This document shows positions 579 to 64,000 of a stretch of DNA of 64,000 nt, in pieces. The number at the start of each line of letters is the position of its first letter. The stretch's first letter is position 1. Made by a program: the position numbers and the translations under genes. Origin of the DNA: Catajapyx aquilonaris (Eukaryota); NCBI GenBank assembly GCA_000934665.2, contig JYFJ02000417.1:62001-126000 (forward strand). The letters are read 5' to 3'. The notes below the pieces were generated by a model. That model made no database searches. It saw only the letters and a program-made list of their open reading frames with translations, and was not told where the DNA came from.

Positions 579-726
579 CCAGCACAGTGGTGATGTTGAA
601 GCCTTCGAAGAGGAGGTTGGGGACTTTGAAGTCGACCCAGAAGTACTCGTGCATGCCGCCCATGTCCATCATCATCATCGTCATCCCTCCTCCTCTTCCA
701 GTCTTGTTCATCTCCTGCTGGTCCAT
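579..726 (-). CDS. SLC31A: First coding exon of a Ctr/SLC31-family copper transporter (rest of gene lies beyond the left edge of the window)
   Basis: MDQQEMNKTGRGGGMTMMMMDMGGMHEYFWVDFKVPNLLFEGFNITTVLG has a Met-rich copper-binding N-terminus followed by the Ctr M-x-x-x-F...LLF-x-x-W/F-x-I signature. It ends at a G|GTAAGA donor (intron starts at 578). No further exon was recognised in 1-578. Confidence 0.8.
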
Positions 727-954
727 TTGATGAGACGAGTCTTTTGCCAGGAGGAAACCCACCACCACCAGCAGCCTCGACCGAACCCTGCCGTTCGACT
801 GATCCAATCTTGTTGGCTCCGGGGGGAAAATCCAAAAGGGACGAAGGTCGGGCTCTAAGAGAGGATCGACAGATGGCCCCACTGGCGCCGGCGCCTCTCT
901 CTCTCTAGCTATAATGAATGGGGAGGAAAAAAAATTGCACGTGCCATAAAAAGG

Positions 955-1045
955 GGAAAACAACAAAAGTGCATAATACGTCACACTTCCGGTCACGTTT
1001 CGGGTGTGACAACATTGCCATCAAATCACCGCATCACGTGCCCCC
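955..1045. promoter_or_regulatory. Probable Ctr promoter region
   Basis: ETS-like CACTTCCGG (~984), CRE-like ACGTCA and E-box CACGTG (~1036) lie about 250-300 bp upstream of the Ctr ATG. Motif matches only. Confidence 0.35.
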
Positions 1046-4005: not shown

Positions 4006-7000
4006 GTAAAAGGGTCAACGCGAAAGAAAAACAAACAATTTTTTAAAAATCTCCTGGGGATGGGAACACTGTACAGAGGAGTTCATTTTTTTATTATTTT
4101 CATGCCACTCTGGGGCGGGATGGGCGGGAGCTGTACAGGCTTGTTTACAAAAAAAAAAATCATTCGCGGGGGTCGTAGCCTGCTCAATACAAAAAAAAAT
4201 TGGACCTGACATCGCAGGTAATTGGGTCGTTAACTGGCCGCAATTTGACGAGGGATAAGATAAGGAGAAAATGGCGTAAAATTTGGCAAGCGGTTAACAA
4301 AAAGATTTCCCTTTTCTGGTGGCCCTGTTTTTCGTTCTCTTCAAAAAGTGAAAAGTAATAAATAGGACAATTTTTCTGTACGACGAGAATTCAAATTGAT
4401 TGGTAGGAATTTGGACAGGTGGGGACAAAAGGTCGGGGAGGGCCAATATTTTACTGTGTCTTTTCCTTGATCTTGAGTAAGTGACGGGGCTTGATCATCA
4501 TGACTGACCTCTTCAGAGTGTAATCCCAGCCACGCCAGCGGAACCAAACAATGCCTGCAACATGGGATTTGTTAGCATGTGGCTCTATTGTTCAATCACC
4601 GAGATCGTACCTTGTCTAGCGGTGAGGTCCTGAGGATCGGTGAGGTAGAGCCCGTTGAGTCCTCGTCCGCATGACTTCCACCACCAGCCGCCCTTGAGCA
4701 TGGAAGCGCAGTTGAGCGAGGATCGGTCGTTGTCCCGGTCGAACGTCGAGAAGGGGCTCATGTGTGAGCCATACCAAGGGTCGCTCAGGGAGTCTCCGGC
4801 TGTCCCGTTGTAGCCTCCAACCTCAAGCCGGTAGTTGTCAGACTCCGGTCCAAGTCGGAAGTGCGTATACAAAGCAGACCTGCATAGAAACAGCAATTGT
4901 TAAGTCTCCATCGTTAACTCAAATGGGACATGCAGACCTTTTGTTGCCTTCAAAGTCCTCAAGCTCCACTCGAAGCGCGTACTCTTCCTGGTTCGTCAGC
5001 ATATGCAGGTTCTCATTACCCAACCACAGCTCACGTCTAGGGTCACCAAACCCTTGCTTGTAGTCATTCCAGTCGCGATTGAAGTTCTCATGAGGATCGC
5101 CAAATTCGTCTCGTCGTTGGACCACCTGCCATACACACACGTTGCATCATTTCCAGGATTAATTAATAACTAATGAACTTACAATCCATCCGCCGCCTGC
5201 TTCTTCCTGCTGGCAGTAGACCTGCAGGAACCAGTACGCTGTCCCTCGGAGTTGCAGGTAATATACGCCGGACTTGGTCATGCCTTGCTGCAACAGGTCG
5301 TGGCATGAGTAGCCCTTAACATGCGCGGCATGGAGACCTGAGAGGTCACCCGACGCAATCAAGACGGAGAATGACGTGTTGCCCTGCAGCACCGGCTTGT
5401 TCTTGACCGACGGGAAGACCACGCTTGGTCCACGTGTGGAGGCTGCGGACTTGCTTGGAGGCCTGGGAGACGTCGTTCCTGTGCCTGAAGGACTGCCGGT
5501 GGAGTTGTTGACAACGTTGCTGGTGGAGTTGTCTGGCGGCGGCAGAGATGGAACTGGAGGCGGCTCAGTGTTTAGATGCAACGGTGGAGGAGGAAACGAG
5601 CGGAAAAAGTCCTCGGGAAGCCCGCCTTGTCTGAGCGCCTCAAATTCCAATGACCGGTCAATGGTTGGGTCGAGAAGAAGCTGCGCCGGGATGGCTCTAG
5701 CACCCAGCACCTGCAGATCCCCGCCACCTCCATCGCTTGCCTGTCGGTAAAGGTAGCAATTGTTAATAACATTGATGATTTATCGTTTGCATATAATGAC
5801 CTGTCGATAGGTGAGCCGCTGCTCGAGGTCACCCAGGTTATTGAGGATAGCCTCAGCTTTGGACTTGAGGTCTGCGTGGACATCCGAGATGGCTCGTTCC
5901 TGCCGCCTGGTCTGGCTCAGAAGCGCATCTGACTTTGGCACAAGGTGGTCCACCGAGCTCTTGGTTCCAACGACAACGTCCCAGACCTCGTCCATCTTGG
6001 CACTGACGCTGACTACCGGCGCAAGCTGCCCCAGCACAATGTCCAGCTTACTCATGGACCCATTGATGTACGGAGCAGGCGTGGTTGTGGTGGTCGATGA
6101 GTGTTGCTCGACGTCGTTGGGACTAAGCAACGCCAGCTTCAGGTCGGCCAGCATATCAGCCAGTTTGCCTAGAGCCGCCTCTGCCCTAGCCGCATGCTCA
6201 ACCAAGGCGGTGGCCACTACTCCTTCATCGCCCCGCTCTTTCTCCTGCCGTTGAAGCGAAGCCAGACGACCATCCAGAAGCTGTCGGATAATATCAATGA
6301 GCAATGTACCGGTATGTAACATAACAACGTACCTGTAGCTGATGGTCAAGTGCGGCCATTCGCCTGTCCAGCCTCTGTCCGGCCCTCTGCTCTGCCTGCC
6401 TCAGCTGCGATAGGACATCATCCGCTCTGGCCAGACTCTGCTCCAGCCTTGCATCCACGGACTCGATCCTCCTCATCAGATGCTCCACGGCCCTATCCAG
6501 GTTCTCAACCCGCCTCAGCTTAGCCTCAAGCGTGGCCACGATTGCTTCAAACACAGACACCAGCTGCGGGGAAACACCTCGTGGCGGAGAGGGCGCACCG
6601 GCAGACGGGGACGATGCAACAGGAGGAGAGGTGAGGCCTTCAGACGCAGCAGACGCTTCCTTGCTGCCAGTCCCAACATCATTGCCCAGGTTGGAGTTGG
6701 CCGAGTTCAGAACCGAAGTGCTGTTGGAGAAAACAATACGCTCAACAACTTGGATACCACTATGCAAATTGGTTCAGGGGAGGTCAAAAGGTGATAACGA
6801 GCTAGTCACGTTCACACCTGGATTTATTTACCTACCCCCATTTTCTCTAGCTATGCGCACAATGAAAGTTCGACAACCTATCCCAATCACCTCAAAATGA
6901 CAATGCAATTAGTGTCATAATAGTTAATCACTTGGAAAAGCGTTTCAGGCCAAAAAGGTCATAAGTGACAAATTATCCTGGTAATTTCGTTATGTTAAAT

Positions 7001-10000
7001 GTGTAATTGGCCAAACACTTTTCCTGGCAACCAGAAAGTTGTAGCAATGTCGCTCTAATGCAATTTGCAGATTTCAGGAACCCGCCATTAACCTCCGACC
7101 AGGCTCTAAATGCCAACTGGGTTTTGAGAGTTATGGAGCTCGAGTTAAGTGCATTTTGCCAGCCTAAAATGTCCTTCGAGTGAGCAGCCAGAAAATGAGC
7201 AAAACGTCACTCAGGAGAAGAAAAAAAACCCCCCAGAAGGAGTGGACATCCTTGGACTGTAAACGCGGATGTGTACCTTGCTGTGTGTGCGAGATGTTTG
7301 GACATATCTCCTGAAGGAGGCTGCCAAACTGGACCCTTGAGAGGGTTTAGAGTGGTCCATTCAATGGACGTCGAATGAGGACGAGATCGTGTGAAGGACC
7401 TTCCAACAGCTGATGTGCAATTCGTTTTTAAAATTAAATCACGATTTCAATTCACAGCTCAAAAATTTGGCAACGCTGCCCGGCCCGCTTGGACAACCAG
7501 TTGGCGCATAGGCTCCTCCCACTCCACCACATGCACCTAGGTCGTGCAGGGACAGAGTCAACGCCTAGCCAATTCTATATGTGATAATAACGCCAAAGTA
7601 AAAGAAAATGTTTACCTGTGGCGACATTCACATTTTTGCTAATGGGACACCTGCGGGTTGGACACTTTCGAAAAGCGGGTCGTAAAAAGCCCTGCCTTCA
7701 TTAGTACCTAATTAATGAGTAATTTGGAAGTACTAGTAGTAGCTCTTGAGGCATTGCTACTTCAGAAAAAGTGTTTACGACTAGGTGAACAGCCGCATTT
7801 TGAGCAAAGGGAACTGTATGTGGCAAAACGCTTTTATGAATAGCCAGTAAGCAGAAATTAATTGGACATTCCCACAGTATGTTCATTGCTGATATGCACA
7901 CACAAACGTTGGTATAATTAATCCTATGAGCCTAACCAATTGTTCTGGATTTACCTATGGTTTATACAACCGGTCCTTAGTTGGCAGATAAAATTACTCT
8001 TGTCTGTTACAGTTTTTTTTTCTCCCCCCTGGCCATGATAGACCTTGACGTCATTAGTGGCTTAATATCTCTTCGTGTCTCTTACCCATCAGAGGAGTTG
8101 AGAAGAAGGTGTGTGACAGTCCTTGATTGGGCAAGCTCGTTAGGAGGGGGGGCTTATTTAATTGCGAGATGCCAGAAGACGAAGAAGATCTGAAGGGAAG
8201 GGAGTCTGGCCTGGATCTGGTAAATGGTGGCGCGCCTTTCTTGAAGAGATGATGCCTGCTCATCCCTCCTCTCTCAGGACCACCTGACCTCCATCAACAG
8301 CGTGAAAGCTTGGCAATAATTCGAGTGGGGGACACCTTGCAGTATGACCATGCCGTCTAAGGATCATCTTTTTCCTAATTATTTGTCTGATGTTTGTCCA
8401 ACCTGATAGTGTCGCCATCGACATGAAGGTGGCAGGAGTGTGCAGACAGGGTGCGCCATCTATACGTGAAGGATAGAACTGCGTGGTAAATCTGCGGGAC
8501 ATCTCACCAAATTGCTTCGGACTTCTCGCCCCTGCCGTTTAGCCCCCGGCGTATTCGCCCCCGTGACATATTCGTCGTTGCCAGGCTACACACAAGGCCA
8601 GGCCAGGGAGCATATACGACATAAGAGGCGCTAACTTCTGTCGGCGCCTTTGATGTTCGCGTCTCTCTGTTTGGGGCCGTTGCCAAGGCTGGCGGCCATT
8701 TTGAAGTGTGGGCAACGCCAACGAGGTATAAATAGGGTACATGCTAAAATAGGGTCCGCCATCTTTGATGGTTTTGGCGGCCATGGCAACTACACGGCAA
8801 GAACACGCGCGAATCAAAGATGGCGGACCCTATTTTTGCCTGTACCCAATTTATACCTCGTTGGCGTTGCCCACACTTCAAGATGGCCGCCAGTCTTGGC
8901 AACGGCCCACACAGAGAGACGCGGAAATCGAATGTTTGCGCCTCTTATGCAGTATATGCTCCCTGGCCAGGCCTAGAAATGCTCAGCCGAATGATTCAAA
9001 GTGGAATGTGCCACGGGGGCGAATACGCCGGGGGCGAAAAGTCCGGATGCTGATTGTAAGTTTTGACAAAACTTTGGCAACGAATTCACTAGTTCATAGT
9101 ACACAATCGAGGGAACCAGACCTGGACCAGAAAAGTGTGAACAATACGTCACATTTCATGTCAACAAGGAAGAATGAGCAACATTTTGACTCGATTACGA
9201 AGATCATGTTGTGTGAACCTAACCTAACCACCTTAAGTTATGAGTCCAATGTTGGAGCCGATTACGTCGAGATTTATTGCTTCGTGTAACCTGCTGCGTA
9301 TCGGCAGAATCGCACAACAAATTTTTTGGGGATTATTTACCGTCAAGTGTGTGTAACTTTCTCTAGTGGCGGCAGCGGTTTCGCAACCACAGAAAACTGG
9401 AAATACTGTAATAAGTCTTTTGCTTGGTGATGCTGGAGGAGGTTAGTGGAGGGGAGGGGGTTAGGGATTTGAATAATCGACTGATAGCTCCTGACAAGAC
9501 TGACAACAACGAGTTTTTAAATGCTGAGCGGTGGAAGGTTTTCGTGCACTTGTCATGATACGATCATCAACGCGTCTCTAATGCAATTTCATTAGGCCCA
9601 CAAAAAAAACACTTTTCTGATACGGATTTCCCAACTATTTCAAAAAAATCGGCGAAACATATTTATCTTCCGGGTTTTTGCCTCCAGAGCGAGTGTAACC
9701 GTGGTGTACCTGCACTTTGCGAGACCATGTCACATTCGGACAGGTTACAAGGCTTTCCAATAAACCTGCAGTAGTCACGTACCGTCTTAAATTTTTTTTT
9801 GGCTTTGGCTGGAAGCCTAAGACTGGTTCCTGTACAGGGTGAGCCAGCTTGAATCTCATGTGAAGTACCAGTCTATTGCTCCATTTATGGTCAAAAAAAA
9901 CTATAGTTGGACTGATGTAGACATCTGATAGTACAAAGTCGATTTGTGTAATGATATTGGACATGTTCAGTGGACGAAGGCTGTCGCTTTTAATAAAGGA

Positions 10001-13000
10001 AATGTATGGATAAGGAAAACTGTTTCCCATCTGATTGTCTTAATTGTATTGTTATATACCCTTGAATGATGTGCGTCCAGGGTCAGTTACTCAACCAGTG
10101 CGAATATGGCTTATGGCAATTTAAAAAACAAAACAAAAAAACAAAGAGGATTTCGTGCATGTTGCCCAAACGAGTTAATTGCATGGTGTCAGCCGATTAA
10201 ATCCCGCGAGTGTGCGCTTCGTATAAACATCCGTAACCCTACCGAGGTCAGCGATAAACCAGCCTGGAGCAATGGACCAGACGAAAATCCACGCCCTTTC
10301 ATAGAAAGCAATGGGGGATCTCGCTCGAATTGCAGCATATGAGATAGCCATCAATCGTGGGCAAGGTCAACCAAAACACACTCTTTCTCCTCCCCATGAA
10401 AAACAGTTTCCTCAACATAAGTCCCAGGGACATTTGCAGCTCACTTTGCTCCAATTGCTGTGGTAATGGTTATTGGGATTTAGTGTCGAAGGTGCGGGAA
10501 AAGAGACTGCACTAAACCCATATCAAATGGAGGACGTTGGAGGAAACTTATCTTATGCAAACACTGGCCTCGCAGGCCAGGAGATAAACTATAAGCGAAA
10601 CCTGTCTGCAGCGGACATGTTTCCGCAATATACAGTGTCATTTGGACTATGTTCAGTACGCCAAAATATTTGCGGAAGGAAGCGTTTCAATAGTAAAAGA
10701 GAATTATATGAATTACATTGAAGTGTCAGTTTGCTTCTGTAATTACGATTAGCTGCTAATATTAGGTGAATTAGACTCACATTTTTCTTTAAATGAAACA
10801 AAAAGGCACCTCTTGAAGGGTGTGGCCAGGTTACAAGTTAACTAGTGAATATCTAATTTTTTACCTTGTTCTATCTATAGGAAAGAAAAGTTCCCAGTCG
10901 CTGACCTTGAGGTGCCAGTGATTAAAAATGGGTCACGTGAATGATTAATTATTTTTTTCTCCGATTGAAGGACTGATTTTGTTCGATCTATAATGTTAGC
11001 ATTTTACATTTTTCAATGCCTCTGAAAAATCACAGTTTTGAAGTAAGCTGACCATAAAAAGCGCAGTTTTGCCAGAAATATGTTTAATATGGATACGATA
11101 AAATGTCCGGCCGAAGGTTTATCGGTAGTATAATGTCTTCAGCAATTAATAAGCAATATTAATGGGCCTAATGAGAAACATCACTAGTAAAATGTTACTG
11201 GTTGCACAGGAATAATGAACAGTTCTCAGACAGTAGAAAAGTCGCTGTTTCATTGGATGAATTGTAATTGAATAATTAATTGATTTGAAGAGTAACAAAT
11301 TGATGCTGAATCAGATCTGTTTAGTGTACGATACATATTTTTTGAAAGGTTGCTGTTAGTGTTACTACCAGACCCAAGGTTTCATAGGCTGTAACGTATC
11401 GGGGCCAATTAATAGTATCCACTAATATCTTGGCATAAAAGCATTACAGTGCATATTAATAGCCTGTATTGGAATTAGGCCAGGATTGGAAATACCTGTA
11501 CTATACACACAGTCTGAATGTAATAAACGTGCGACCGGCCCCAGCCCGCTTTTAATAATTTGCATTTATATTGCCCTTCCTCTAATTGCACACGAGATAC
11601 TTAGAGCCGATATGTTGGCTGCGAAACAAACATCCGGGTGCAATAATACCAATTAAGTATTAGTACTACAAACGGGGGAGGGAGGTAAATAATAATATAC
11701 GACGCTTGATGGGAACTTGCCTGGAGCCCTCGGGCTGGTTGTGCAGTCATTGCGAAATGTACCGACAAAGTGTGTGACAGGATGCCAAATCGTGTTTGGA
11801 GGCGACGAAAAATAAATGGCAGGAAATTTGCTCAAGTCGAAATAGTTCAAGACTGAGATGCCAGGATTTTTTATATCGAATATTGGTGGTCTAAATATCG
11901 ATTATCGTTCGATTTAACGAAGTATTGCTAACCGTCCGTTTTATCGATATATTATTTATTGTCCAATTTATCGAAGTAGGCCATATCGGCAATTCGATTT
12001 ATTGAACCATCACTTATCGTTCGATTTATCGGTATATGTTATTGTCCGATATAGCGATATATTGTTTATTGTCCGATTTATCGAAGTATCGCTTATTTGA
12101 TTTATCAAAATCTCGTATCGTTCGATTATCGATATTGTTTATTGTCCGATTTATCGAAGTATCGCTTATTTGATTTATCGAAGCATAACTTATCGTTCGA
12201 TTTTTCGATATATTGTTACGGTTCAATTTATCGAAATATTGCATATTTGATTTATCGTAATATCGATTGGCGTTCGATATATCGTAATATGGATTATCGT
12301 TCGATATATCGCAATATGGATTATAGGTATATATTGAAGTATCGATTATTGTTAGATATATCGTAATATGGATTATCGTTCGATATATCGCAATATGGAT
12401 TATAGGTATATATTGAAGTATCGATTATTGTTAGATATATCGTAATATCGATTATCGTTAGCTAAATCCAGGTATCGATTATCGTTAGATATATTGAAGT
12501 ATCGATTATCGTTAGATATATTGAGGTGTCGATTATCGTTCGATATATCGAAGTATCGCCAGTCGCAATCGAGAATGCGATACATCGACATTCAACATCT
12601 TTCCCATATCTTCTGAGAGGAATTTCTCGTCCCTTTTGGATGGACGGACGGAGTGCAAAGCGATAATAATTGACGATATGGCACCGTTTTCTTCTCACTT
12701 GAACATCGCGCCATTGGAAAGCTTCATCACGGATTTGATAGCCTGTCCCTGATGACTAATGATGTTGACAGTCGTACAATGAAACGCGTTGCGTTTGGTT
12801 GCGCAAAAGGTCGCTTTCTATTCCCCATAATCTCTCATTGAACTTCCCCCCCCCCCCNCCCCCCTGGCAGCCAGCTGCAGCTCTGACCTACCGCATCCTT
12901 GGCCATCGGGAATCCAGCATCAATGCCTTCCTGATTGAGCTGAGGTCGGAGTGAGAAATTGGCTGACGGTCGACAAGGGCAACGTGTGTTGCCTCCGATG

Positions 13001-49300: not shown

Positions 49301-52300
49301 ATGATGCCCGGATCGGCAGGTAAACAACCACCACTTCAAAACCCGTTCTATTATTGAAATAATTGCAAAACAAATCAGTGACGTCATACGCAATTGACAG
49401 TTAATTGCGAAAATTTTGGCAATTTTTTTTAAGCAAATTGAGGCCAAGTACATACAGTGTGTACATGCACATAATATGTACATGACATTCATGTTGGTCT
49501 TGTACGAACGTACTTGTGCTGTACGTAACAATGCTCTTGAACAATCCTTGAACGCAATTAATTCATTTTATGTGTAATTGTTGATAATTCATTTCAGGAC
49601 CTTGCACTGTACTTGCACTGTACGTAACATTGCGCTTGAACAATAATTGTCCATACATATTTGTTCTGTACGTAGCACTGCGCTTATTGCACAATAATTG
49701 TACGTACATACTTGTAGTGTATGTCACACTGCGCTTGAACCGTACTTATACTGTACGTAACACTTCGCTTGTGCAATAATTGTACGTACGTACTTGTACT
49801 GTACGTCACACTGCACATGAACTGTACTTGTACTGTAGGTAACACTGCGCTTGAACAATAATTGTACGCAATTAATTCATTTTATGTGTATTTGTTGATC
49901 ATTCATTTTAGGACCTTGTACTGTACGTAACATTGCGCTTGAACAATAATTGTCCAGACTCACTTGTGTTGTACGTAACAATGCACTTGAACAATAATTG
50001 TATGCACGTACTTGTACTGTACGTCTCACTGCCCTTGAACAATAATTGTCTGTAGGTACTTGTACTGTACGTCGCACTGCGCTTGAACAATAATTGTGTG
50101 TACTTAATTGTACTGTACGTCCCACCGCACTTGAACAATAATTGTCCGCAATTAATTCATTTTATATACAATTATTGTTGATAATTCATTTTAGGACCTT
50201 ACACTGTACTTGAAGTGTACTTAACATTGCGCTTGAACAATAATTGTACGTACATATTTGTACTGTACGTAGCACTGTGCTTGAATAATAATTGTACGGA
50301 CTTGTAATGTACGTAACAATGCATTTGCACAATATATGTATGTACGTATTTGTACTGTACTTAACGCTGTCCATGAATAATAATTGTACAGACTGGTACT
50401 GTATGCAACAATGCGCTTGCACAATAATTGTCTGTACGTACTTGTACTGTACGTAACACTGCGCTTGAATAATAATTGTATGCAATTGTAGGAGCTGAGG
50501 ATGACCTGCCCCGTGCCAGCCACAACCGGGAGTCAACCCGGGTACGTGTTGCAGTACGGGTACGGCCGCCATCTCACGATGCAGGGCCCGATGCGGTGCG
50601 GGTACGGACCAAGAAAGAGCTGGGCGTGCACATACCGTCAGCCGGATCAGAGCTGCGGTTCCACTTTGACCTCTGCTTGACCCCCGACACGACCCAGGCG
50701 CAGACGCACGCACTGTTGGGGCGGCCGTTGCTGGAAGCCGCGTTTGCAGGGTACGACTCGTGTATGTTCGCATACGGTCAGACGGGATCAGGCAAGACGT
50801 ACAGTATGACCGGCGTGCACGGTAACGACGGGGTCGTACCCAGGCTGTGCCAGGAAGTGGCCGCACAAATCGTAGAATCAGACGAGGACGTGCAGGTTGA
50901 GGTCAGCCATTTGGAGGTGTACCGAGAGCGTATCCGTGACCTTCTGGCGGCTCCAAGTCCGGTCAAGCCTCGCACGCCCAAGACCCCAAGCTACAAAGGT
51001 ACGCCGCTATCGAAAACACCGACGGCACCCAGAACACCCGGGTTGAGAATCCGGGAGCATCCGGAGCTTGGCCCGTACGTCGCAAACCTGACCCGACACA
51101 AGGTCGCAGATTTTGTCGAAACACAGGTACATATATGTTCATAATTTATTTGCATTCTTGATACATAATTGCGGTTTACATTAAGAGTCTGCTGGCGACT
51201 GGGGAGCGACGAAGGGCGACCGCAGCGACCGGGATGAACGACAAGAGCTCACGATCGCACTCCCTGTTCACTATTCATCTCACCATGGCGCATGTACGTT
51301 CACTTGCGTAATTAACAGTACAGGGTGTAACACGATGCGGTTTTTCCCAGGACGAGATGATCGACAGCAAGTGGCACAAGGTGGTCCGGAAGAGCCGGAT
51401 CAACCTGGTCGACCTGGCAGGGAGCGAACGGGTCGATCGTGCGGACATGGATCCGGACAGACTCGAGGAAGGGATCAGCACGAACAAGTCGCTGCTGACC
51501 TTAGGAAAGGTCATCACATGTTTGGCCGAGCAGAAGTCGAATTCGAGGCGGAAAGTGTTCATTCCCTACAGAGACTCGGTCCTCACCTGGCTCCTGAAGG
51601 TCAGTTCTAGGATGGGTCAGTCTTTTTTTTTGCAGGGGGTCAAAAGGTCAGTTCATGAAGGAGGTGAAGTAGTTGAAGAAAGCCGGAAGCAGCAGGATAA
51701 CATGTCCGCCACACTTTCCGCACCGATGTTTCGGCTGCGTCTTCTTAACCAGCGGCTCCATCTCGTATAGGGCTGCCCCTGTTGCTTCCTGCCCCACCTC
51801 TGCCCCTAGCACAATACGGCCTCCGACCATCCCATGAATCTTCTCTCCGGCCGCCACAAACGAAAGCATATTAACGTGGGAAAAAATCGTGGCGTACTAA
51901 TCAAGTTTTGCAACTTTGTAAGCATTTTTGCGCACGTCCCATTCATATCTTATCTAATGTGACCTTCACTTTTTTGTTGTTGCGCTTTCATAAATTGCAA
52001 TGGTGTGTATAAAAAGGGGTAGAAAAATATATGCAAAGCAATGCGCATCAGGTGTCCTTATCGTGCAGCGTTATCCGGCTTATCGCTTTGCACACAGTCT
52101 TTTATCTCGTGAGAAGCTGGCCGATTCACGAGGCCGCCTCCGGGTTGGGTTTGCTGTCTGGGGGCTGCCCCTGGGCCGGGGGACTCTGCCCCAGGGCCGG
52201 ATCCTCCTCGGGTATGGCCATCCTGCAGGCCTTCGTGTTGCAGCGTAACAGCGAACGGTGCAGACGTGTTATCTTCCGTGGTCGCCCCCGGCCCAGGACA

Positions 52301-53820
52301 TGCTCCCAGTTCGGCCCCTTCTTCTGCCCCTGGGCCGGCTTCGGAGTTGTCCGCTCATCCTCGTACTCGACCTCTGCACATTACATTATTAGAATAACCG
52401 CTGAGATGTTCGAACATAACGACTCACCGGGACAGTAGACGTAAAAGTATCCCTGCACCTCCGAGATCCAGGACAGATGTGGGTACGACATGGTTCGATC
52501 CCGCAATTGAAAAGCTGCGTACCCTTCCAGCCTATTTTATCCCGAGGTTTATCTGAGGCCTTGTGTTGCTACGTGCGATACAGTGCGATGGGCGGTGTAT
52601 GTACAGTACAAGTGGGAGGCGGGGATCGAACCAACCCCCTCGAGAGAGCCCCGAGATTAGACAAAAGGATCAAACTCTCTTCCCGGTTCCCAGCTAATCG
52701 GGACTAGACAGGACCCCGTATAGAGAGAGGCACTTGACCTTTAACCCCGCTCTACTGTTCGATATCACTGGTTTTTGCATCGAGGATGGGGCAGCTCGGA
52801 GGTCGCGCCCTTAATTTAATCATTGCGACCAAGGAGATGAGCCTCAATGTTGTGATTGTGCGAATGACATCATGACGAGAGGGTCGTTCTGCTGTAATTA
52901 TGTCAACGGCTGCGTACTTTCCCACAGTAAAGCGATGTCGTTGGGCAAACGAGTTGCTCGCACTGAATGAGCGCAAAAACTATCCCGAAACAACTCATCA
53001 GCGATTGGTCGTTACATCATTGTTCGCTGCATCTTACAATGACGAACAAGATAATCTCATTATCTGATCACATGTTGTCTACTGATCTCGTCGCATGTAA
53101 ATGTTAGCACGTGCTTTCCATACACATGTTGCTGTCCGGTGACGAAGGTGCCGTCAAAACGAGGACGACTCGTGACTAAATATTTATCGGAAAAGTTCCA
53201 TCAATTTCGCAGGTTCATACCGGTACGAAAGGTACACATTTTTTTCTCCCCCATCACTGTACGTCTCCCATTTGTACATACAATGCTGAACTTCCCTATT
53301 GTTGCAGGAGAGCCTTGGGGGCAACTCCAGGACGACGATGCTGGCGACGGTGAGCCCCTGTGCGGCCCATGTCGAAGAGACGCTGTCGACGCTGCGGTAT
53401 GCGAACCTGGCCAGAAGCGTCGTGAACAGAGTGTGCGTCAACGAGGATCCCAACGCGAGACTCATAAGGTTCGTTACTTGCACCGGTTAATTGCGCATTC
53501 GTTAACACCATGCTTTTTTTTCCAGGGAGCTGAGGCGCGAAATTGAGGAGCTGAAGCTTGCCAATCACGTGCCGAGCAACGTGTCGCTTTTGCAGACAAA
53601 GGAGAAGGAGATGGAGGAACTGCAGGGGCGGATGGAGTCGGATGCCGCTGAGGAACCGGCGGCTGAGGGAACGAGGCGGCCCAGGCGGCGGATCAGCTCG
53701 TACAAGCGGTCGTCCCCGCCTCTGTACAGCTCCAACTTCCTGGAGGCCATCATGGCATGCCAGTTGGACCAAGGCGAAGTCGGGTTCAGAGTCTCAAGCG
53801 CACTACGGATCGACAGTTAA
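49301..53820 (+). CDS. KIF14: Kinesin-3, KIF14-like, short form of about 488 aa. Exons 49301-49319, 50492-51126, 51186-51293, 51351-51599, 53308-53468, 53526-53820
   Basis: [24 protein letters not shown] (P-loop), [23 protein letters not shown] (switch I), [11 protein letters not shown] (switch II), [48 protein letters not shown]...[29 protein letters not shown] and RYAN.AR are KIF14-like. Exon 1 is inferred from phase. Confidence 0.82.
49500..50490. repeat. ~44-bp minisatellite filling kinesin intron 1
   Basis: TACTTGTACTGTACGTAACACTGCGCTTGAACAATAATTGTACG units with a ~300-bp higher-order repeat (GCAATTAATTCATTTTAT at ~49555, 49869, 50148). Confidence 0.95.
52126..52491 (-). CDS. Putative two-exon orphan gene (103 aa, AT-hook-like GRGRPRK) nested antisense in kinesin intron 4. 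Exons 52491-52428, 52373-52126
   Basis: ACCATG start, G|GTGAGT donor, a 54-bp intron with CTAAT branch and TGCAG acceptor, phase match, and a GC-rich open frame ending in TGA. Confidence 0.5.
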
Positions 53821-53826
53821 CTTTAT

Positions 53827-54746
53827 TTATTCGCCCAACTTATAGTACTCGGAATAATCATAAGTGCGGGGCGGTACGTCGAACGAGAGCTTCCCGCTGT
53901 CTCGAGCCTTGTCGATTGCCACCAGCAGCTGGCGGTGCTTCATCTGGCACAGCCCCGTCTTGCTGCGGAAAAGACACACATTTCAGTATATCCAGTAAAC
54001 GGCTTTATCATGTACGGCTGTACCTGTAGCTGAGTACTTGTCCGTCATGCGGACTTATGAACTGTTTCAGCAAGTCCACGTTTGTGTGGTCCAGCACTAG
54101 GTACTCGTCCCTGCAGATCGGACAGGGGCTGCCCGTGGAGATCATGCCGCCTCGCTGTAATTTGTCGTTGTCATGTGTTTATAATGATTTCAATAAAAAT
54201 GTACTTACAACGCATGTTTTCCTTGTTTTGATGGGTGGAAATGCGCCTTTGTGGTTACGTCGGTACAGCGTCCACACCGGGTCGTCCCCGTACGTTTCCT
54301 TGTACGCTGTGGGCTGGTGTTACATCAAGCGTAATTGTTTGCAAATGTGATACGTACCTTTACTCTTCAAGTACGTCATGCTCGTTTCGACCGGTATGAC
54401 TTTAGTGCGATCCTTCGACGCATCACGAGCTGTGGTCTCCGGGTCAGGGTCAGCCGCTGGAGCCGCTTCCTCCTCTGCACGCAGGCATCCAGTTGTGCTG
54501 ATTGGTGCCACCTAGGTCAAAGGTCAACCCCAAAAAAAATGTTTCTCCCACATATTTCATCAAACAAATCCGGATTTTTCAGTCCCCCACTCATCCGGAC
54601 TGTCCTACAAATGCTGCCATATTCACCTGGATTGTCCATCTTGCCGTGTCCAAGCCGCGGGCAGAACCCGGGGCCAACAGGGGTGTCCTAAAAGCCCAAA
54701 ATTTCGTAAATTTTGAAGCCACCACGCTTAATCTGAGCGCCGCCAT
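53827..54746 (-). CDS. MRPS18B: Mitochondrial ribosomal protein S18B, about 212 aa. Exons 54746-54627, 54511-54358, 54306-54209, 54154-54024, 53962-53827
   Basis: Manual translation: MAALRLS...[139 protein letters not shown]. These are characteristic mS18b motifs and all phases are consistent. Confidence 0.95.
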
Positions 54747-55390
54747 TTTTTTAATTTAAAAAAAAAAAACGACGCCATCTTTAACTAAAATTTATTAAAT
54801 AATTTTAACAACCCGAACATACTGGAAGATACATTCGCCATAAAAATGTAATTAGCAAATGTGCATCACATTTATAATTAATTTGGAACCGAAAATTAGG
54901 CCATTCAAGGTCAACGCCCCGGTATTGGAACGCACTAAAACCTGATGTAGATTACACGGCGATTGTAGAGTGGCTGGCAATGAGGTCATATACGGCTTTA
55001 GTGTGCGCAGACACTGGGGAAAACCTGGTGCAAACATGGCCGCCAGATCTGACGTCACTACACATCATACGGACATCGTGTGGACCAACGGGCGTCAGGT
55101 TTTAGCGTACTGAAACGTCATCAGAGAACCGGATGTGATATCCGGTTGTAAATCCGAATCCGGAATGTACATTCCGTATTGTACAGCCATGTGTGTTCCA
55201 ACTTTACTTTACAATACGTAATAAAAGTCGTGTATGATATTAATGTGTAGGTGACTGTGCCGTTAATGCGTACAGTGACGTGATGTTCCGATTCCGATTC
55301 CGCCCCACCCACTCCCACCCCGTCGAGTCCCTGCGACTAGTCGTGTGGACCCCAAATCGAACGCTTCGTCATTCGGAGGAGAAAATAGGT
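54747..55390. promoter_or_regulatory. Bidirectional promoter MRPS18B / PNUTS, with a probable non-coding PNUTS exon ending at ~55388
   Basis: YY1-type CGCCATNTT / AACATGGC motifs (54741, 54773, 55033), CRE TGACGTCA at 55050-55057, and a strong donor AG|GTAAGT at 55389. Confidence 0.55.
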
Positions 55391-56113
55391 AAGTTGCAGA
55401 CCTCTGTGCGGATAATTCCCGGGAAAAATATTAATTTTTCCTCCCCCCCCCCCTTCAAAAAGTGTGTATTAGTGTGCAAAATTGTGGTTGTGTGACATTT
55501 TTCTTTATAACACCCTCCCCCATATTGCAACGACACTCACCGATGGAAATCCTTCCATTGCAGATGCGAGAGGAGGATTAAAAGAAAAAAAAAGGCAGAT
55601 CAACTCGTTCCCAACACTGCGTTTGTGTTCGACACCATAAAGAGGACTTGAGACGGGGGATACCAACCCAGCATAAACCCCCAAATTATTTATTTCTCAC
55701 TATTGTTTATATATAATATATATAAAAGGAAAAAAAAAGAAAAATAATAAGGCTGGACCCTACCCTCTTTATATAAACCAGAAACAAAAGGAAACAGGAG
55801 CATAAAGTGGTTTTTACATGTAAGTCATAAGTTTACTGGGTCCTATTCTTTAAATTTACAGATTTGGCATACACTTATTACATAAAAAGGCAGTTTTAGT
55901 AGCTTAAGTGCGACGCAATGCGTTTTTTTTCCATACATATAAATTGAAGGACGTACTATTCATAGAACAAGTAGGCAGGGTTGTAATGTCCGTTTTTTTT
56001 TTTTTCTTCTCCGTCCCTTTCCCCCCACCCTCTCCCCCACCCATTTTTTTCCGCCATTTTTCTATGGCAGGAGGCGCCCCTTGTGACAACCAACAAGACT
56101 GGCGGCCAAGAAA

Positions 56114-59100
56114 ATGGTAATTCAATGCGCTTCCCCCTTCTCCTGTTCCGCCTCCCCCCCCTTTCCCTTAAGGTCGTGACGTGGCAGCAGGAGGCGACGC
56201 CCCACCGCCCTGACGCCGCCTCCCCCAACCGACGCCGCGGACGCCACCCACCGGGCGGGGGATCAAATCCATACGTGGGCCGCCCTCTAGTTCCTGTGGT
56301 CGCGGGCAGGCGGCGCTGGCCCCTCCTCCACCACTCGTTCTCCTGTCGCTCCACAGATGGCGTCCACATGCCCCTTTCCCCACTTTATCATCAAAAGAGC
56401 CCTTCATGTCCTCTTGAAGGGAAAAAATGGACTTTGAAATTTTTTTGCTCACAGTATGATGATGATGGCACAATTGCCCAATTGAGAGCACTCGACATGA
56501 AATTAGCTCAAAATTTAATTGGACATTGGGCTGAAATTTACATGGATTGGGGGATTAAACCAATGTAAATCGTTGAAGGTGATGCAGTTTATTTCTGATG
56601 CATCATCCTCTAAAGATATTTATTTCTTTTTAAAATTATTGCATAATCTATAATGCAATTTTAACAATTTAATCATTTCTGATGCATCCTATAAAGATGT
56701 TTATTTTTTAAAACTATCCCATAACTTAAGACTGAAATTTTAATCATTTCTGATGCATCATCCTCTAAAGATATTTATTTATTTTTGCAAAATTGTTGCA
56801 TAATCTAAATGAAATTTTAACGATTTAATCATTTCTGATGCATCCTATAAAGAAGTTTATTTATTTTTAAAACTATCACATAATTTAAGACTGAATTTTT
56901 AATCATTTCTGATACATCATCCTATAAAGATGTTTATTTATTTTTAACTGTTGCATAATCCGGAATTAAATTTTTAGCAATTTAATCATTTCTGATACAT
57001 CATCCTATAGATGTTGAATTTTTTTTTTTAACTAGTGCATAATCTAGAATGATAATTTCATCATTTCCATTAAGATGTTTTATTTATTTTTTAAGTATTG
57101 CATAATTTAGACTGAAATTTTAACCGTCAGTTGCAAATGTGAATTGAAATGATGAGCCAATTGTTTTTTAAATGGTTCAGATAGTTATGAGCTAATTATC
57201 TATTAAGACATAATAATATTTCTAATGGGTAACATTCATTTCCTAATGGCTATTAGATTTAAGGATGTGCGCATTTAAAAAATTGCACTTTGAGGAATTT
57301 GTCCACTTTTTTACATCCTTGGGAGTCTGTTATTACTCGAATGGATTTTTTGGCTTAATTTAACTGGATAATGAATTGAGATGGTTTTTATGTGAGTTCA
57401 GGCCCTATTCATCCCAAGTATTTACGTAGCGGCACGTAATTGTATTGTCGGTTATCCACCAACAATACAATTACCTGTTGTTGATTATCAACCAACAATG
57501 CAATTACCCATGTGTCCGGACTTTAGCGTCACCCTGTATATTGCCTGGATTACTTTTATATCGTAAGCAGAAAGGGACTAATAGCATTCTGCTCTGGGCA
57601 ATTAAAATTTTGCCAGTGTAGTAGAATTTTAAATGCATAACGATCCCTTGTAGGAGAGCAGCAAGTTAATTACTTTTGTTTTGAGGAAAAGTGAGCAGGC
57701 TCATGCTGCATTACTGTGTGGCCTTTCAATCTGTTCTAGTGTCACATTGGTTGAAATCTAATTGATGCAATGCACATAATCAACCAGTGCAGTGAATAAT
57801 TCCATGACATTGACATTTACTGCATGTTGCAGTCGTTTCTGTGGTGCCAGTTGCCATCATCATCCGTCTGTTCTAGTCCATCGTACGCTGTCCCCATCCG
57901 CCCATTTTTGGCTGTCCAGCAACCCCTTCCTCATACCGTTCCGCCTGGCTTGGCTTGTGCCACTCTCCACATTCCGATCTCTCAATTTTTCATTTACTCT
58001 TGAGGAGTAACTGTAACTACACCTCGGGGTCTTCTCTCTTTCTATGTGTGTCCAAGCAGCCACGGATTGACCCGTGGCAACTCTTGAAGTGCTTGAGCGT
58101 CCTCCTCTCGCCGGAAGGAGGGATCAAGACACATCAGGAGGTGCCTCGGTTAGTCAGTCTGATGACCAAGTTCAGCAAGAAGCTGGTCAGCAAGTGCATA
58201 TATGTGCAGATACTCAAAGCCTCTAAGCTGGATCTGCTGGACCAGTAAGTTCCACCGATCTCTTTGAACGGACCGCAACCCCTGCCCTGTAAACAGTGCA
58301 TGCCAAATCTGTAGCTAGGCAACCCCCAGTTGTGTAAACATTCCGTTGTTTATAATAGAGACAGCAGAAGCAGCATTCCAGGACAGAACTGACAAGTCGC
58401 TCTCTTTTGTGTGGACGTACTTTCTTGGCTTTCAAAGCTTTGAACAATCGACCATACCGTTTTAATTGTAGGTGTATGCGTTTCATGAAGCGCAATAACG
58501 GACAGTTTGGAATTTCAGTGCCGTGAGGACCTGAAGTATTCCGTGATTCCGAGGCGTACACATCGTGCGTTGGATAACGCCGGGTACATAGGATCCAGGG
58601 TTGCGCAACTGCAGAAAGATTAGTTATCCCAAGGCTGATCGATCAGTCGTCGATTAATTGTTGCCAACAATCCTCTTGAGAACAATTTGCCTGTTTTACA
58701 CAAGTTCGCTCGGAGATTAAAGCCATTGTGTTACTTTCACGCAGTTGTTAGTCTTTAAGATAGCAGCAGTACGTCTCAGTGGATACAAAGCTTGGCATGA
58801 CTCATCGCACATGAATATGACTTCCAGCTTCTAAGAGATTAGTCATCCGAAATTTCAGACATTCCCTGTCACATTTGGTGCAGAAATTAATCGAATTGAA
58901 AGCGTAGGACATCAAACATGTAGAGTATGCCATTAATTTTATTGTAAACAAAGATAACAGTAATTTAAATAATGCAAGTTATGTGGTAGTGGTATAGATT
59001 ATGTTTTCTGTTTTCCTGTGTTGTTTTTGGCAGTGTCTTAATCCGCGGCTTTAATTTCTTCCCGACAGGTTTATGGGCTCTGGTGGCTGGGCATTAGTAC

Positions 59101-62100
59101 ACGCTTGGATGACTGACGCTCTCGCATACCAGAACTGGGCCTTGACCATGGAGCTTCTGGAACTCCTGAGGGACTGTCCCGTGGGTGTGGACCGGCTCAA
59201 AGAGAATGGGCTCCCCAAGGACATCAGGGCCCTCTCCAAGGAATGCCCCGATCCAAGTGAGTTCTTACCAGCCAATTCTCAATGACTAGTTGTTGTTTTT
59301 TTTGCATGTAATGTTCATGATACCTAATGCGACATGCTTAGAAATAATGAGCAAAGTAGTAAACAAAGAAGTATGGCCCATGTTATTTCTGCCGATATTG
59401 AATTGTTAACGAGCATTTCCTGACAGTCTGGCTGTTGAGTAGAAAGCTTCGTTTCAAATAATATTTTTGTCGTTTATTTGTGAAATGGGCATTCTCCTCG
59501 GGATTTTACAACCTCTGCTACAACCTCAACTAAAAATTCACAGGCTTTCTAGCAAGAGTAGATCGACAACAAGCGGTATTTATCTAAGTCGTGCGTAAGA
59601 TAAGGCGGTGGGTGGGGATCGGCCTTATACCTCGGGATACAGAATACTACTTGTGTAACATGGATTGCAAGTCGAGGTGAAGCAATCTCTGCGATTTTAT
59701 CTATGGCTTTGAACGTCTGGTATTGAAGGACTTTTTAATAGCAATTTTGGAGAATCTGCTTCAGTCAACCATCCAGACGCATTTCTACAGAATAATTGCA
59801 AATAATGTTGCTGTACTGTACATAAAGGCTCGCAAAATATGTTGCTTGAATTTTTGCGATTTTACTGATGCATTCTCATGAGGCGTCAGAGCAGAACATA
59901 TTTTACTCCTCGCTGAGAATGAATTTTAGCATAGTACTATTATGTACTGTCCTTAATCGTGTCGCATATTAATTTGCTGTGAGCAAACAAGTACCAAAAC
60001 CTATGTTTCTTGATAATTTTAGAAGTGAAGAGCGCAGCTGCTTTGGTAGTGAGCAAGTGGATGCAGGCTGTCAGGGAGGAGGAGGGAGGAAGCAGCACCT
60101 CGCAGGCCGAATCAGCTGCGAAAGATGCGGAGGACGACGGGGCGGAGGAGCAGGAAGAGGAGAAGGTGGAGTCCAGTCCTTCCCCGACTGAATCCCATCC
60201 TGACAGTGGAGAATCCTCCATGGCAATGGAGGCGGATGGAGCAGCAGCGGCTGAGCCTGTAGACGAGGCTGCTGGTGGACAAAAGCCTCTGGGTGAGAAG
60301 CGACAAACGAGGTCCCAGAAGTTGACTGCCGAGTCCGTGGCGGAGCAGCTGGACAAGGAGGAAGCTAGAGAAGGGAGCGAGGAAGAGGAGGATGACGATG
60401 ATGAATCAGGCTCCTCGACCGTCCCAGTGTTCAAGATCACAATACGTGATGGAAAGCACCTCCTGTCGAAGCTGGACAAGACTGTGTCAAAGAGGAAGCT
60501 GCCTCCACTTGAGAAGCCGCAGGCGAGGAGGAAGGCCATCATGGTGGAGCCCAGGCCTGAGAAGGACATGATTGGAGACGTGAAGGAGCGGGAGAAGAAG
60601 GGGAAGGGTGCTGCCAGCAAGAGGGCAGCGGATGAGGCCAAAGAGGAGACCAAGAGGGTGAAGAAGGAAAAGGAGAAGGAGAAGGAGAAAGAGCGGGAGA
60701 GGAAAGGCCAGGAGAAGAAGGACAGGGAGACGCTTCAGAAGCTGAAGCTGTTGAATGAACCTGCCGAGAAACCTGGACGGATCTCAGGCCTTCCCAGCAT
60801 CTCCAAGCTGGGGAAGATCCCGAAGAAGCCACGACCTCCAGAGACCAACCCGTCAACCTCCTCCGCCCCAGCTTCCTCAGGGTCCAGCACGTCCTCCAAC
60901 TCATCTTCTAGTTCGTCCTCATCCTTGCTTGACAAGCCGCGTCCAAAGACTGTTAAGATGTTCAATTCAAAGTTCCGCTCCGTGGGCCTTGAGGAGGAGA
61001 TCAAGCCTCCTCCGCCACCATCTACCAGATCCAACAAGGCCGCGTTAGACAAGCGGCTCAGCAAACCTTCCCATAACCTGAAGCGAGGCACATCCAAAGC
61101 ACAATCCCCACCGCACACCCCTACCTTTAAGGAACAGCCGGCCGGCTCGTCCTCTCCTTCGGCCGAGAAAAAGGAAAAGGACAAGAAGGTAGCGTCTTCC
61201 CCTCCGCAGTCAGACTCTAGCTCGTCACCGACTCAGAATCATCACGGCGAGTCAGGGAGGAGATCATCAGTCACCAGCCGATCGTCCAAATCGAAACGTA
61301 AGTGGGTCTGTTGCAGGTGGTGCCACGTTAGCTGCTCTTCTAGTAGCTATAGGTTGTAGATCGCAAACTGGAAACTATGAAAATAAGGAGCATTATAAAA
61401 ATACATATACGGAGTTGGAGGCTTCCAGTGAGACGTTTATCAGGTCGGCACAGAGTTCAGGCTAAAGCAAGATTTGGGGGTTCAAATAGATTTAGTTTTA
61501 TCGCTGGGGTTACTTGGTAGATTGCAAAATGGGGGATCCTTTTCGGACCTGCAAACAGGTAGCGAAATCCGCGTCTGGTTCAAAGTACAAAAAAACGTGC
61601 ATGCAAACATGACAGTAAAGTTGACACTGTTATATGCCAAAGAAAGTGGAACAATAAAATATGTTTCGATTACTTGTGGGTTTTTATTATACTCCTAATG
61701 CGCCACGAACTTACTAAACAGCAATGAAATAGCACCAATGATGCTGGATAAATAAAACGGATATTATTTTCCAAATGGCTATTCAGACAACAGGCGTTTG
61801 TCATGTTTGCATACACAATTCAGCGCTAATTATATCGGTAATTAACCTGCCCATTGTCTTCCGCAGAGGGCCACCAGATCCAGGAGAGCAACATGTTCAT
61901 GGACGCCCTGCTGGCCGGTTCGTACGAGCCGAGGAAGAGGAAGAGGAGAAACAGCACAAGCACCGGGAAGGAAGTACCCGAGCCAAAGAAGGAAGCAGGG
62001 GTCAAAGTGGAAAAAGAGGAGGCGAAGGGAGGCGGAAGCAGTCCTCTCTCGTCACCCACGTCCACCAAGCCCACACTCAAGGTGAGCTCGAAAATTGTTG

Positions 62101-64000
62101 CATTGGACCGACTACGAGTCATTGGCGGAAAGGAAATCATAACCACATGTTGTTTGTTGCAGTTTTACCAAGATACTCTTGAAACGAAGGAGGAGGAGGA
62201 GGATTCTGATGTCAAGATGGAGGACGAGGGCAGCAGGACTCCTCCACATGAGGATGTCCTGGAGGATATGGAGGCTGAGGATGAGAGTGAAAAGGGTGTA
62301 AAAGAGGAGGAGGAGGAGGAGGAGGAGGAGGACAGCAACAAGGAGGAGGATGAAGCGGAAGATGACGACGAGGATGAGGCAAAGAAATCTAAATCAAAGG
62401 TGGAGAAGACCAAGTCCAAGGCGTCATTGCCGCCTGCGAAAGGCGGCCTGAAGAAGCCCCTGAAGAGCGTCCTGGTTGTCCTCCGCTCCGTGACTGCCAA
62501 CAGGACCAAGAAGACCGTCCACTGGAAGGCCGAATCCAAGCTGAAGGAGGTGCACTATTTCGAGCTGGACGAGACCGAGAGGGCCAACGTCACCAAGAGC
62601 TTCCTGGACATGAAGCAGAATGAGCACATGCTTGAGAGGCAGACCCTTCTGATGGCCAGGAAGATCGGTCAGTGTTTTTAAATTGCTAGCTAGAAAATTA
62701 TCAGATCTGAACTAACATGTTGGCATGAATCGTTCTGCACTAACTGCTAATGAATTGGGATTCTTTTTTTTTGTTTTGTCTTCAGTTCCGGATGATAGCA
62801 TGGAGGAGAAGATATCCTGGCGCGTCCCCATGGAGCTGGAGCTTCCGGCCGCTTTGGTGGCTCCAGCCAGCCTCAGCAAGGAGAAAGAGGTCCAGTCCGC
62901 TCGCGAGAAGGGAATCCTCCAGGCGATATACTTCAGCCGCGACATGATTCCGCCTTCGCCTGGAGAGCCCCCGCTTGAAGCTCTTCTGCAGCAGGCCCCC
63001 GGTGCTCCTCCGTCGACCGAACAGGCCAAGAGCATACCGCTAGAGGACACCACCGGCAACCCTGAGAACGTCAACGACTTCCGTAACACCCCATGGCCCG
63101 ATCCCAAATCCTCGCAGATCCCGCCAGTGTCGCCATCGCAAGGGACTGTCGGAAGTGCCGCAAGCTCCGTCCCACTTGCTAGCGGAAATGGTGCCGCCCC
63201 CGGAATGGCAGGGGCGGCCATGCCGCAGGCGGTCGGAGCGGTGGGATCGCAGCAGTACCAGTACCCCGCACAACAGCAGTACCAGGGCGGGTATCAGATG
63301 CAGCAAATGGGCGGGATGGGGCCGTACCAAGGAGCACCCATGGGGTACCCACCACCAGGTGGATCCATGGAGGGCCCTCCGCCACAGATGGGAGCAGGAG
63401 CCGCAGCAGGAGGATGGAGAGTACGTATCTGCATTGTTGTTGGGTTGATTATCTTGAATGCAACGTGTACTGGGTGCATGAATTGAAAATGGCGATGAAT
63501 TCCCATGGACAGAAAAAAAATTTGTTGCATAGTGTTACTATTTCGGGCGGTTTGCTGCATGGCCACATTTTCAGGTATTTGCGCTTAGGAGTACATGAAA
63601 GAAGCTGCTCCACTGGAATCACGGCTGGATAAGTACCTATTCGCTTAAAGATGCGTATCGTAAAATAAGTGCAGGAATTTCAACCGCTAGGAAATCGGAA
63701 TGGAAAGGTGTTTGCTTTGGCAGTCACTAACGCTGTTCTTTCTTCTGGTTTGGTGTTTTTGCAGGCTGGAGATGGAACGGTGTATCCGGACATGTCGTCG
63801 CAGTCCATGGGAGGCTACAGGGGAGGTCCGGGGTCGGCACCTCCGCCTGGAGCGTACGGGGCAGGAGGCAACGGAGAAGATATGAGCGGAGCCGGAAGTG
63901 GGGAATACGTGGCTCCCCCGTACATGGGCCCTCCTGGGATGGGTCCCCCGGGATACGGACCTGGGATGGGTCCCCCCGGAATGGTGCCCCCTCCGCACAT
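56114..64000 (+). CDS. PPP1R10: PNUTS / protein phosphatase 1 regulatory subunit 10 (3' end beyond the window). Exons 56114-56116, 58060-58244, 59069-59256, 60023-61297, 61867-62081, 62163-62667, 62786-63420, 63765->64000
   Basis: MPRIDPWQLLKCLSVLLSPEGGIK...LVSLMTKFSKKLVSKCIYVQILKAS, a TFIIS-N-like domain, RPKTVKMFNSKFRSVGLEEE, ESNMFMDAL, PP1-docking KKTVHW followed by YFELDETERANV, EKEVQSAREKGILQAIYF...PPSPGEP, and a Gly/Pro/Met-rich tail. Confidence 0.93.
56588..57125. repeat. ~65-75 bp AT-rich tandem repeat in a PNUTS intron
   Basis: About 7 copies of AATCATTTCTGATGCATCATCCTATAAAGATGTTTATTT...GCATAAT. Confidence 0.9.

Follow-up and report, generated by a model that had tools for sequence, protein, structure and literature searches.

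A 64-kb segment of the Catajapyx aquilonaris genome and the linkage group ancestral to the MHC: probable macrosynteny with small remnants of gene order

One amphioxus chromosome matches human chromosomes 1, 6, 9 and 19 across 432 genes, and on it 55 orthologues of genes related to the major histocompatibility complex (MHC) are scattered along the entire length. The earlier 'en bloc' picture fails for this chromosome, and compaction of the MHC is dated after the split between amphioxus and vertebrates (Ren et al. 2026, PMC13012124). Here we describe a 64,000-nucleotide stretch of the Catajapyx aquilonaris genome (GenBank assembly GCA_000934665.2, contig JYFJ02000417.1, positions 62,001 to 126,000 of the forward strand), hereafter the window. 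An earlier note on this DNA had read it as a contiguous run of genes with human orthologues in the MHC and its paralogous regions, preserving the ancestral bilaterian linkage group at unusually fine scale. Our analysis favours ordinary macrosynteny plus small remnants of microsynteny, to which we give a rough probability of 0.68.

Two other described systems are close to this locus. Gene order inside bilaterian ancestral linkage groups is largely scrambled between phyla, with collinear runs being rare, and centipede scaffolds keep intact linkage groups where flies show weak associations only (Simakov et al. 2022, PMC8809688). What the window has in common with these groups is shared chromosome membership irrespective of order. 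The second system is the classical set of proto-MHC anchors, RXR, NOTCH, PBX, BRD, PSMB and C3 (PMC10751288), which likewise traces the four human paralogous regions back to one region that existed before the duplications. The window differs from it in holding no anchor family, its genes being housekeeping 'framework' genes, and domains of RXR, NOTCH, PBX, BRD, PSMB, C3 and tenascin were absent from all of the open reading frames (ORFs) scanned against Pfam (batches of 64, 132, 81 and 150).

These ORFs came from a six-frame translation of the whole window and were scanned in three sets: 64 ORFs of at least 120 aa from the entire window, 213 of the 219 ORFs of at least 60 aa between 6.4 and 37.4 kb (the batches of 132 and 81), and 150 ORFs of at least 40 aa from the coding strands of the gene-bearing parts. 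Six ORFs were left out of the second set, two containing N and four at the 37.35 kb edge, with two of these four included in the scan of ORFs of at least 120 aa. All gene models are homology-based only. The window has 38–59% G+C and carries eukaryotic split genes with short introns, seven genes and one partial exon in all.

Co-location in amphioxus and the human paralogous regions

In human, SARDH lies at 9q34, SLC31A1/2 at 9q32, CEP350 at 1q25 and KIF14 at 1q32. The positions given in the earlier note for PPP1R10 and MRPS18B (class I region) and for SLC39A7 (extended class II region) are as in the published human MHC gene table, where SLC39A7 is grouped with RXRB and HSD17B8, and the zebrafish orthologues of PPP1R10, MRPS18B and SLC39A7 are all found on chromosome 19 (PMC1309616).

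Amphioxus positions were taken from Dataset S2 of PMC13012124, which lists blocks common to five amphioxus species, and gene numbers were assumed to follow chromosome order, as the blocks suggest. Orthologues of four window genes lie in one run of gene numbers, which we assign to the amphioxus proto-MHC chromosome (chromosome 7 in A. lucayanum and the matching chromosomes of Branchiostoma). These are SLC31A1/2 (Bfl_015597/8, adjoining FKBP15 and SMG7), SARDH (Bfl_015767, in a 16-gene block), SLC39A7/13 (Bfl_015825) and MRPS18B (Bfl_015832), the last two within a single block of seven genes that all five species share; a second SLC39A7/13 copy is located elsewhere in amphioxus. SARDH is separated from ZIP7 (SLC39A7) and MRPS18B by 58–65 gene numbers in Branchiostoma and by 77 in Asymmetron, with the four-gene run as a whole covering 127 gene numbers in B. 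belcheri (013295–013422), 179 in B. lanceolatum, 235 in B. floridae, 239 in B. japonicum and 1024 in Asymmetron. In amphioxus the orthologues spread over 127–1024 gene numbers, interspersed with many other genes, whereas seven genes and a partial exon occupy 64 kb here.

The SARDH block also contains NFKBIL1, EDF1, COQ4, DNLZ, LSM2, PSMB1, PKN, BRINP, SLC27A1/4 and TMEM141, and the run neighbours orthologues of PKN1/2/3, BRINP1/2/3, ASS1 and POMT1 (Dataset S2). With such neighbours from 6p21, 9q34, 19p13 and 1q, the run of four orthologues fits a single chromosome matched to human 1, 6, 9 and 19. Amphioxus SARDH stands directly beside the NFKBIL1 and LSM2 orthologues (blocks 46 and 385 cover the cases of SARDH and of ZIP7/13–MRPS18B). 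NFKBIL1 and LSM2 are MHC class III genes in human, and several genes of the SARDH block are at 9q34.

Shared ancestral linkage, as claimed in the earlier note, is supported for SLC31A, SARDH, SLC39A7/13 and MRPS18B, so for four genes or more an explanation by linkage group is of the right kind. Starting from the gene identities, their orientations and the amphioxus co-location of these four orthologues, all observed in this analysis, the following history can be proposed. The chromosome carrying the window would descend from the bilaterian linkage group represented by the one amphioxus chromosome, and would have retained that group along its whole length. After two genome duplications the group would correspond to parts of human 1q, 6p21.3 (the MHC), 9q32–34 and 19p13. 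As genes seldom change chromosome, neighbouring genes on it would mostly have orthologues in those four human regions. Inversions would meanwhile shuffle order within the chromosome, with the head-to-head arrangement of MRPS18B and PPP1R10 and the position of ZIP7 near MRPS18B surviving, the former perhaps held together by a shared promoter region.

With gene order largely scrambled inside linkage groups, any chromosome that keeps the group should yield windows of similar appearance. The description of the window as a 'block' of 'unusually fine scale' could not be upheld, given the chromosome-wide correspondence of 432 genes, the scattered MHC orthologues and the scrambling of order between phyla. 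The macrosynteny pattern carries nothing specific to the MHC or to immunity. The evidence fits the current view of the proto-MHC as a whole ancestral chromosome, compacted into the MHC only in vertebrates, and the window would be one more example of that linkage group, in an arthropod-like genome.

Rough post hoc estimates, made with assumed chromosome numbers and mean gene counts, give a sense of how common such windows might be. If 70–90% of the genes on a chromosome belong to one linkage group, all seven assignable genes agree in 8–48% of windows.

Several observations weigh against ordinary macrosynteny as a sufficient account. The linkage-group purity of the window's chromosome is itself an assumption in these estimates, and only four of the eight window genes were placeable in amphioxus. 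DDX59 is the human neighbour of KIF14; in amphioxus it is at Bfl_005480, far from the SARDH run, and given this position KIF14 may belong to another linkage group. PPP1R10, KIF14 and CEP350 were not found in the amphioxus table or elsewhere in the three supplementary files of PMC13012124, and to these three genes the claim of shared linkage could not be extended. MHC-locus genes make up three of the seven assignable genes, where about 11% (47/432) would be expected (nominal P 0.03), an excess that vanishes if MRPS18B and PPP1R10 are entered as a single unit (P 0.13). For the four mapped orthologues, clustering as tight as that seen in the four Branchiostoma species has a P of roughly 0.002–0.015, against about 0.25 in Asymmetron. 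Together, the MHC-locus excess and the clustering in Branchiostoma hint at more than random scatter. The human 1q genes are a separate matter: Nakatani et al. 2021 divide the broad 'proto-MHC chromosome' among several proto-vertebrate chromosomes, so the 1q genes are in doubt. The gene names and Ensembl gene identifiers searched for were not found in the supplement of that paper.

A divergent MRPS18B–PPP1R10 pair with ZIP7 nearby

One of the two candidates for retained gene order is the pair MRPS18B and PPP1R10. In mammals these are MHC class I region genes: the human order is ABCF1–PPP1R10–MRPS18B, with the two genes adjacent (PMC1309616), and in a bat MHC class I map they are divergent neighbours, with PPP1R10 on the minus and MRPS18B on the plus strand (PMC4753418). 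The window likewise has them adjacent, on opposite strands and with their 5' ends facing, the divergent pair being found in two lineages, that of the window and bat. In the window, about 3.5 kb lies between the first recognisable coding exons, and this spacer may include a promoter region shared by the two genes. The spacer yielded no Pfam match in ORFs of at least 40 aa on the minus strand at 54512–55336 and on the plus strand at 56519–58059, the plus strand at 53850–56500 having been inspected by eye only. It contains a low-complexity, GC-rich stretch at 55.9–56.6 kb.

Both genes are firmly identified. The Ribosomal_S18 domain of MRPS18B is in two ORFs (53830–53982 and 54011–54178), and PDB scores separate S18b (37 bits) from S18a (16 bits) and S18c (14 bits). 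PPP1R10, also known as PNUTS, shows both an N-terminal TFIIS-N-type domain and an RVxF-type stretch for binding PP1. The TFIIS-N-type exon (59055–59282) matches PPP1R10 in four of four PDB matches, and the PP1-binding stretch, with the motif TVHW in the ORF at 61842–62678, matches PDB entry 4moy. An upstream exon (about 58060–58245) and a Gly/Pro-rich tail were read directly from the sequence, and the C-terminal zinc finger would be located beyond the window end.

ZIP7 is one gene away from MRPS18B in the window, echoing the 7-gene amphioxus block. The divergence of MRPS18B and PPP1R10 and the nearness of ZIP7 to MRPS18B may be ancient microsynteny. Our searches turned up no paper that names the MRPS18B–PPP1R10 pair together with microsynteny.

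These remnants bear on a stronger hypothesis, in which SARDH, ZIP7, KIF14, MRPS18B and PPP1R10 formed a true proto-MHC core, tightly linked since the ancestor of protostomes and deuterostomes, held by shared regulation and later seeding the MHC framework. The divergent pair in window and bat, the single gene between ZIP7 and MRPS18B here and their common block in five amphioxus species, the distance of SARDH from them in amphioxus (58–65 gene numbers in Branchiostoma, 77 in Asymmetron) and the nominal MHC-locus excess all speak for such a core. However, GTPBP6, BCKDHA and DGLUCY lie between ZIP7 and MRPS18B in amphioxus, with dozens more genes before SARDH is reached, and PPP1R10 and KIF14 could not be placed there at all. 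The statistics are post hoc and the excess depends on counting the pair as two genes, none of the classical anchor families was found in the scanned ORFs of the window, and the published view places compaction of the MHC after amphioxus and vertebrates had diverged (PMC13012124). On balance we regard a regulated core of this kind as unlikely.

A milder version holds that ZIP7, the KIF14-type kinesin, MRPS18B and PPP1R10, with SARDH alongside, are a remnant of the local order of the bilaterian ancestor that persists in an arthropod and, to some extent, in amphioxus, and survives among the framework genes of the vertebrate MHC (class I and extended class II regions). This we consider rather unlikely, if a little easier to accept. 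Were it true, part of the MHC framework would have been tightly linked before the split of protostomes and deuterostomes. Under ordinary macrosynteny with small remnants, which we prefer, the MRPS18B–PPP1R10 pair and the nearness of ZIP7 could still serve as anchors for tracing how the MHC framework was assembled.

Gene identities and the possibility of chance

The features of the window are collected in Table 1. The gene list of the earlier note is largely real, and the identities of SARDH, SLC39A7, MRPS18B and PPP1R10 are borne out by Pfam domains, relatives and/or PDB matches. The description of the genes as contiguous holds in part, the run being interrupted by about 30 kb (6.9–37.3 kb) in which no gene was detected. 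SARDH and ZIP7 converge on each other, about 300 bp lying between their stop codons, ZIP7 and the kinesin are divergent, and the kinesin and MRPS18B are again convergent. No tRNA or Rfam family was found in the window.

Table 1. Features of the 64-kb window, with positions counted from its first nucleotide.
Feature	Position	Strand	Basis and remarks
Putative Ctr-type first coding exon, partial	~565-729	-	Methionine-rich run then hydrophobic stretch, read directly
FReD gene, coiled-coil-like N-terminal exons	4454-6773	-	Fibrinogen_C (Pfam)
Repeat-rich tract, ~30 kb, no detectable gene	6900-37300	.	Pfam ORF scan and repeat search
CEP350-like gene, large, mostly disordered/coiled-coil protein	37367-42704	+	C-terminal similarity only
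SARDH	43455-46189	+	DAO (E 9.9e-67), FAO_M, GCV_T, GCV_T_C; presequence exon unplaced
SLC39A7/ZIP7/Catsup zinc transporter	46486-48803	-	Zip domain in two ORFs
KIF14-type kinesin, motor and neck	50476-53817	+	Kinesin profile in four ORFs
MRPS18B (mitoribosomal mS40)	53830-54511	-	Ribosomal_S18; start codon unplaced
Spacer between MRPS18B and PPP1R10 coding exons, ~3.5 kb	54512-58059	.	ORF scan
PPP1R10/PNUTS, runs past window end	~58060-64000	+	TFIIS-N-type exon and PP1-binding stretch

SARDH has the full four-domain architecture, and tblastn with a tick SARDH covers residues 63–912 in the window. Among the 120 best of 2120 matches, which were those listed, relatives are 59–65% identical (vertebrate SARDH about 60%), with ticks, branchiopods, horseshoe crab, decapods and a millipede at the top. 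Named matches in this set are sarcosine dehydrogenase, the closest ones being SARDH and not DMGDH, with three exceptions, two from ticks and one from a gecko, that bear other UniRef names (dimethylglycine dehydrogenase, L-amino-acid...).

The zinc transporter combines a Zip domain with closest named relatives that are ZIP7 and not ZIP13: all informatively named matches among the 120 listed are Catsup, SLC39A7, zipt-7.2 or KE4 (ZIP13, n = 0). The best local alignments, which take in 69–73% of the query, are 75–84% identical and come from insects, springtails, chelicerates, molluscs and vertebrates, with vertebrate SLC39A7 75–81% identical across the C-terminal 150 aa. Taken together, the SARDH and ZIP7 matches point to an arthropod that has no near relative among the sequences searched. 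Exons were placed by tblastn at 46486–46932 and 47102–47470, together with His-rich N-terminal pieces at 48008–48208 and 48681–48803. These two pieces are similar to each other, and in relatives both align to one and the same set of residues, which might reflect either alternative first exons or a duplication confined to this spot. The first piece includes one N, at 48160. One apparent close relative, a ZIP7 entry from a leafhopper transcriptome (P0124), was rejected, its score having been inflated by an internal duplication of about 90 residues, which probably arose when the public entry was assembled.

The call of 'KIF14-like' for the kinesin stands for the motor and not for the rest of the protein. 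Two exons have KIF14 as their highest-scoring PDB match (99 versus 89 bits and 84 versus 72 bits). A full-library search was followed by Pfam scans on 49 of the 150 best matches, 10 of which carry 4HB_KIF14, and by a quick maximum-likelihood tree of 44 rows (43 matches and the window motor), from which five matches with several motor stretches and one partial match were left out. The window motor falls inside a clade with a Shimodaira–Hasegawa-like approximate likelihood-ratio (SH-aLRT) support of 98, which holds all 10 of the 4HB_KIF14 proteins; the PX-bearing and the DUF3694/PH-bearing kinesin-3 groups are outside it. Within the clade the motor branches as sister to all 17 remaining proteins, and its branch is very long (1.52, the median being 0.32). 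The alignments of eight KIF14-type proteins are confined to the motor and neck, at 50575–53694, and FHA, Kinesin_assoc and 4HB_KIF14, the four-helical bundle of KIF14, were not found in the scanned ORFs around the kinesin. The kinesin frame closes at 53817, leaving 12 bp to the stop codon of MRPS18B, which converges on it.

The gene thus belongs to the KIF14 group as a divergent member limited to the motor. It may be the orthologue, or else a truncated copy that evolves fast and is distinct from the main KIF14 gene. Its reading as a pseudogene, suggested by an in-frame stop at 51309–51311, was rejected: the stop falls within an insertion of about 67 nt that separates matched positions of the profile, as a short intron would.

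The CEP350-like gene consists of long GC-rich ORFs (37367–38149, 37996–39693, 39726–40244, 40223–41797 and 41685–42704) of mostly low complexity. A search for longer relatives returned three matches only, and two of these are beetle proteins with the UniRef name centrosome-associated protein 350 (E 2e-13 and 1e-10). The similarity is limited to the C-terminal 60–97 aa, at 42408–42698, and the CEP350 assignment is weak; CAP-Gly was not found, there being neither a CAP-Gly signature in any frame of the gene nor a Pfam CAP-Gly match. A DUF4378 match falls under the Pfam cut-off. The two beetle proteins likewise show no precomputed Pfam domain. An IQ calmodulin-binding motif was detected above the cut-off at 37996–39696 (E 3.8e-6), to our knowledge not a described feature of CEP350.

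At the start of the window, Fibrinogen_C is split across four ORFs (4454–4591, 4588–4899, 4922–5146 and 5162–5779) which cover profile positions 4–221, and coiled-coil-like ORFs upstream of this domain reach 6773. The presence of a FReD gene is confirmed by this domain, but its link to a particular human gene is not: PDB matches to ANGPTL6, tenascin-R, FGL1, angiopoietins and ficolins are near-tied (57–65 bits), hence no human orthologue can be named. General Pfam scans of the ORFs detected no tenascin-type EGF or FN3 repeats in this gene.

The 'Ctr' gene of the earlier note found no support from any tool. It is represented by one partial exon, presumably akin to Ctr1 in its methionine-rich motif, with the remainder of the gene beyond the window start. 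The exon gave no Pfam match even at E 10 and no PDB relative, its sole match being an unrelated flap endonuclease (E 0.23), and a Ctr Pfam domain with three membrane helices was not seen in this partial exon.

Such loose calls raise the possibility that the pattern is due to chance and generous orthology assignments, with large paralogon regions and selection contributing to it. A Ctr gene without tool support, a CEP350 call based on 60–97 residues, a FReD gene that cannot be assigned to a human orthologue, a kinesin on a very long branch that lacks FHA and the KIF14 tail domains, and a 1q32 region that possibly does not derive from the same ancestral chromosome are all in keeping with this explanation. 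It is opposed by the four firm genes, SARDH at 9q34 and ZIP7, MRPS18B and PPP1R10 in the MHC, which already map to paralogon regions. Furthermore, SARDH, ZIP7 and MRPS18B co-locate in amphioxus, which is hard to obtain by chance, although PPP1R10 is not in that table. We therefore consider chance distinctly unlikely, and ordinary macrosynteny with small remnants of gene order remains our preferred reading.

A repeat-rich tract between the FReD and CEP350-like genes

The tract that interrupts the gene run gave no Pfam family above the curated cut-off and six sub-threshold matches (213 ORFs of at least 60 aa). It harbours a palindromic element of about 300 nt in three copies (8648–8965, 22522–22827 and 33024–33254), with arms of about 100 nt that are 92–97% complementary, giving it the look of a transposon of the miniature inverted-repeat transposable element (MITE) type. 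In the ORFs of this element the same peptide recurs in both orientations. Minisatellites with periods of 27 nt, 11 nt and about 10–15 nt were observed among the stretches at 11881–12573, 18410–18843, 30732–31646 and 36020–36620, and a 1-kb nest of inverted repeats, or nested palindromes, is found at 24325–25336. The minisatellites and the inverted-repeat nest occupy much of the gene-free 30 kb.

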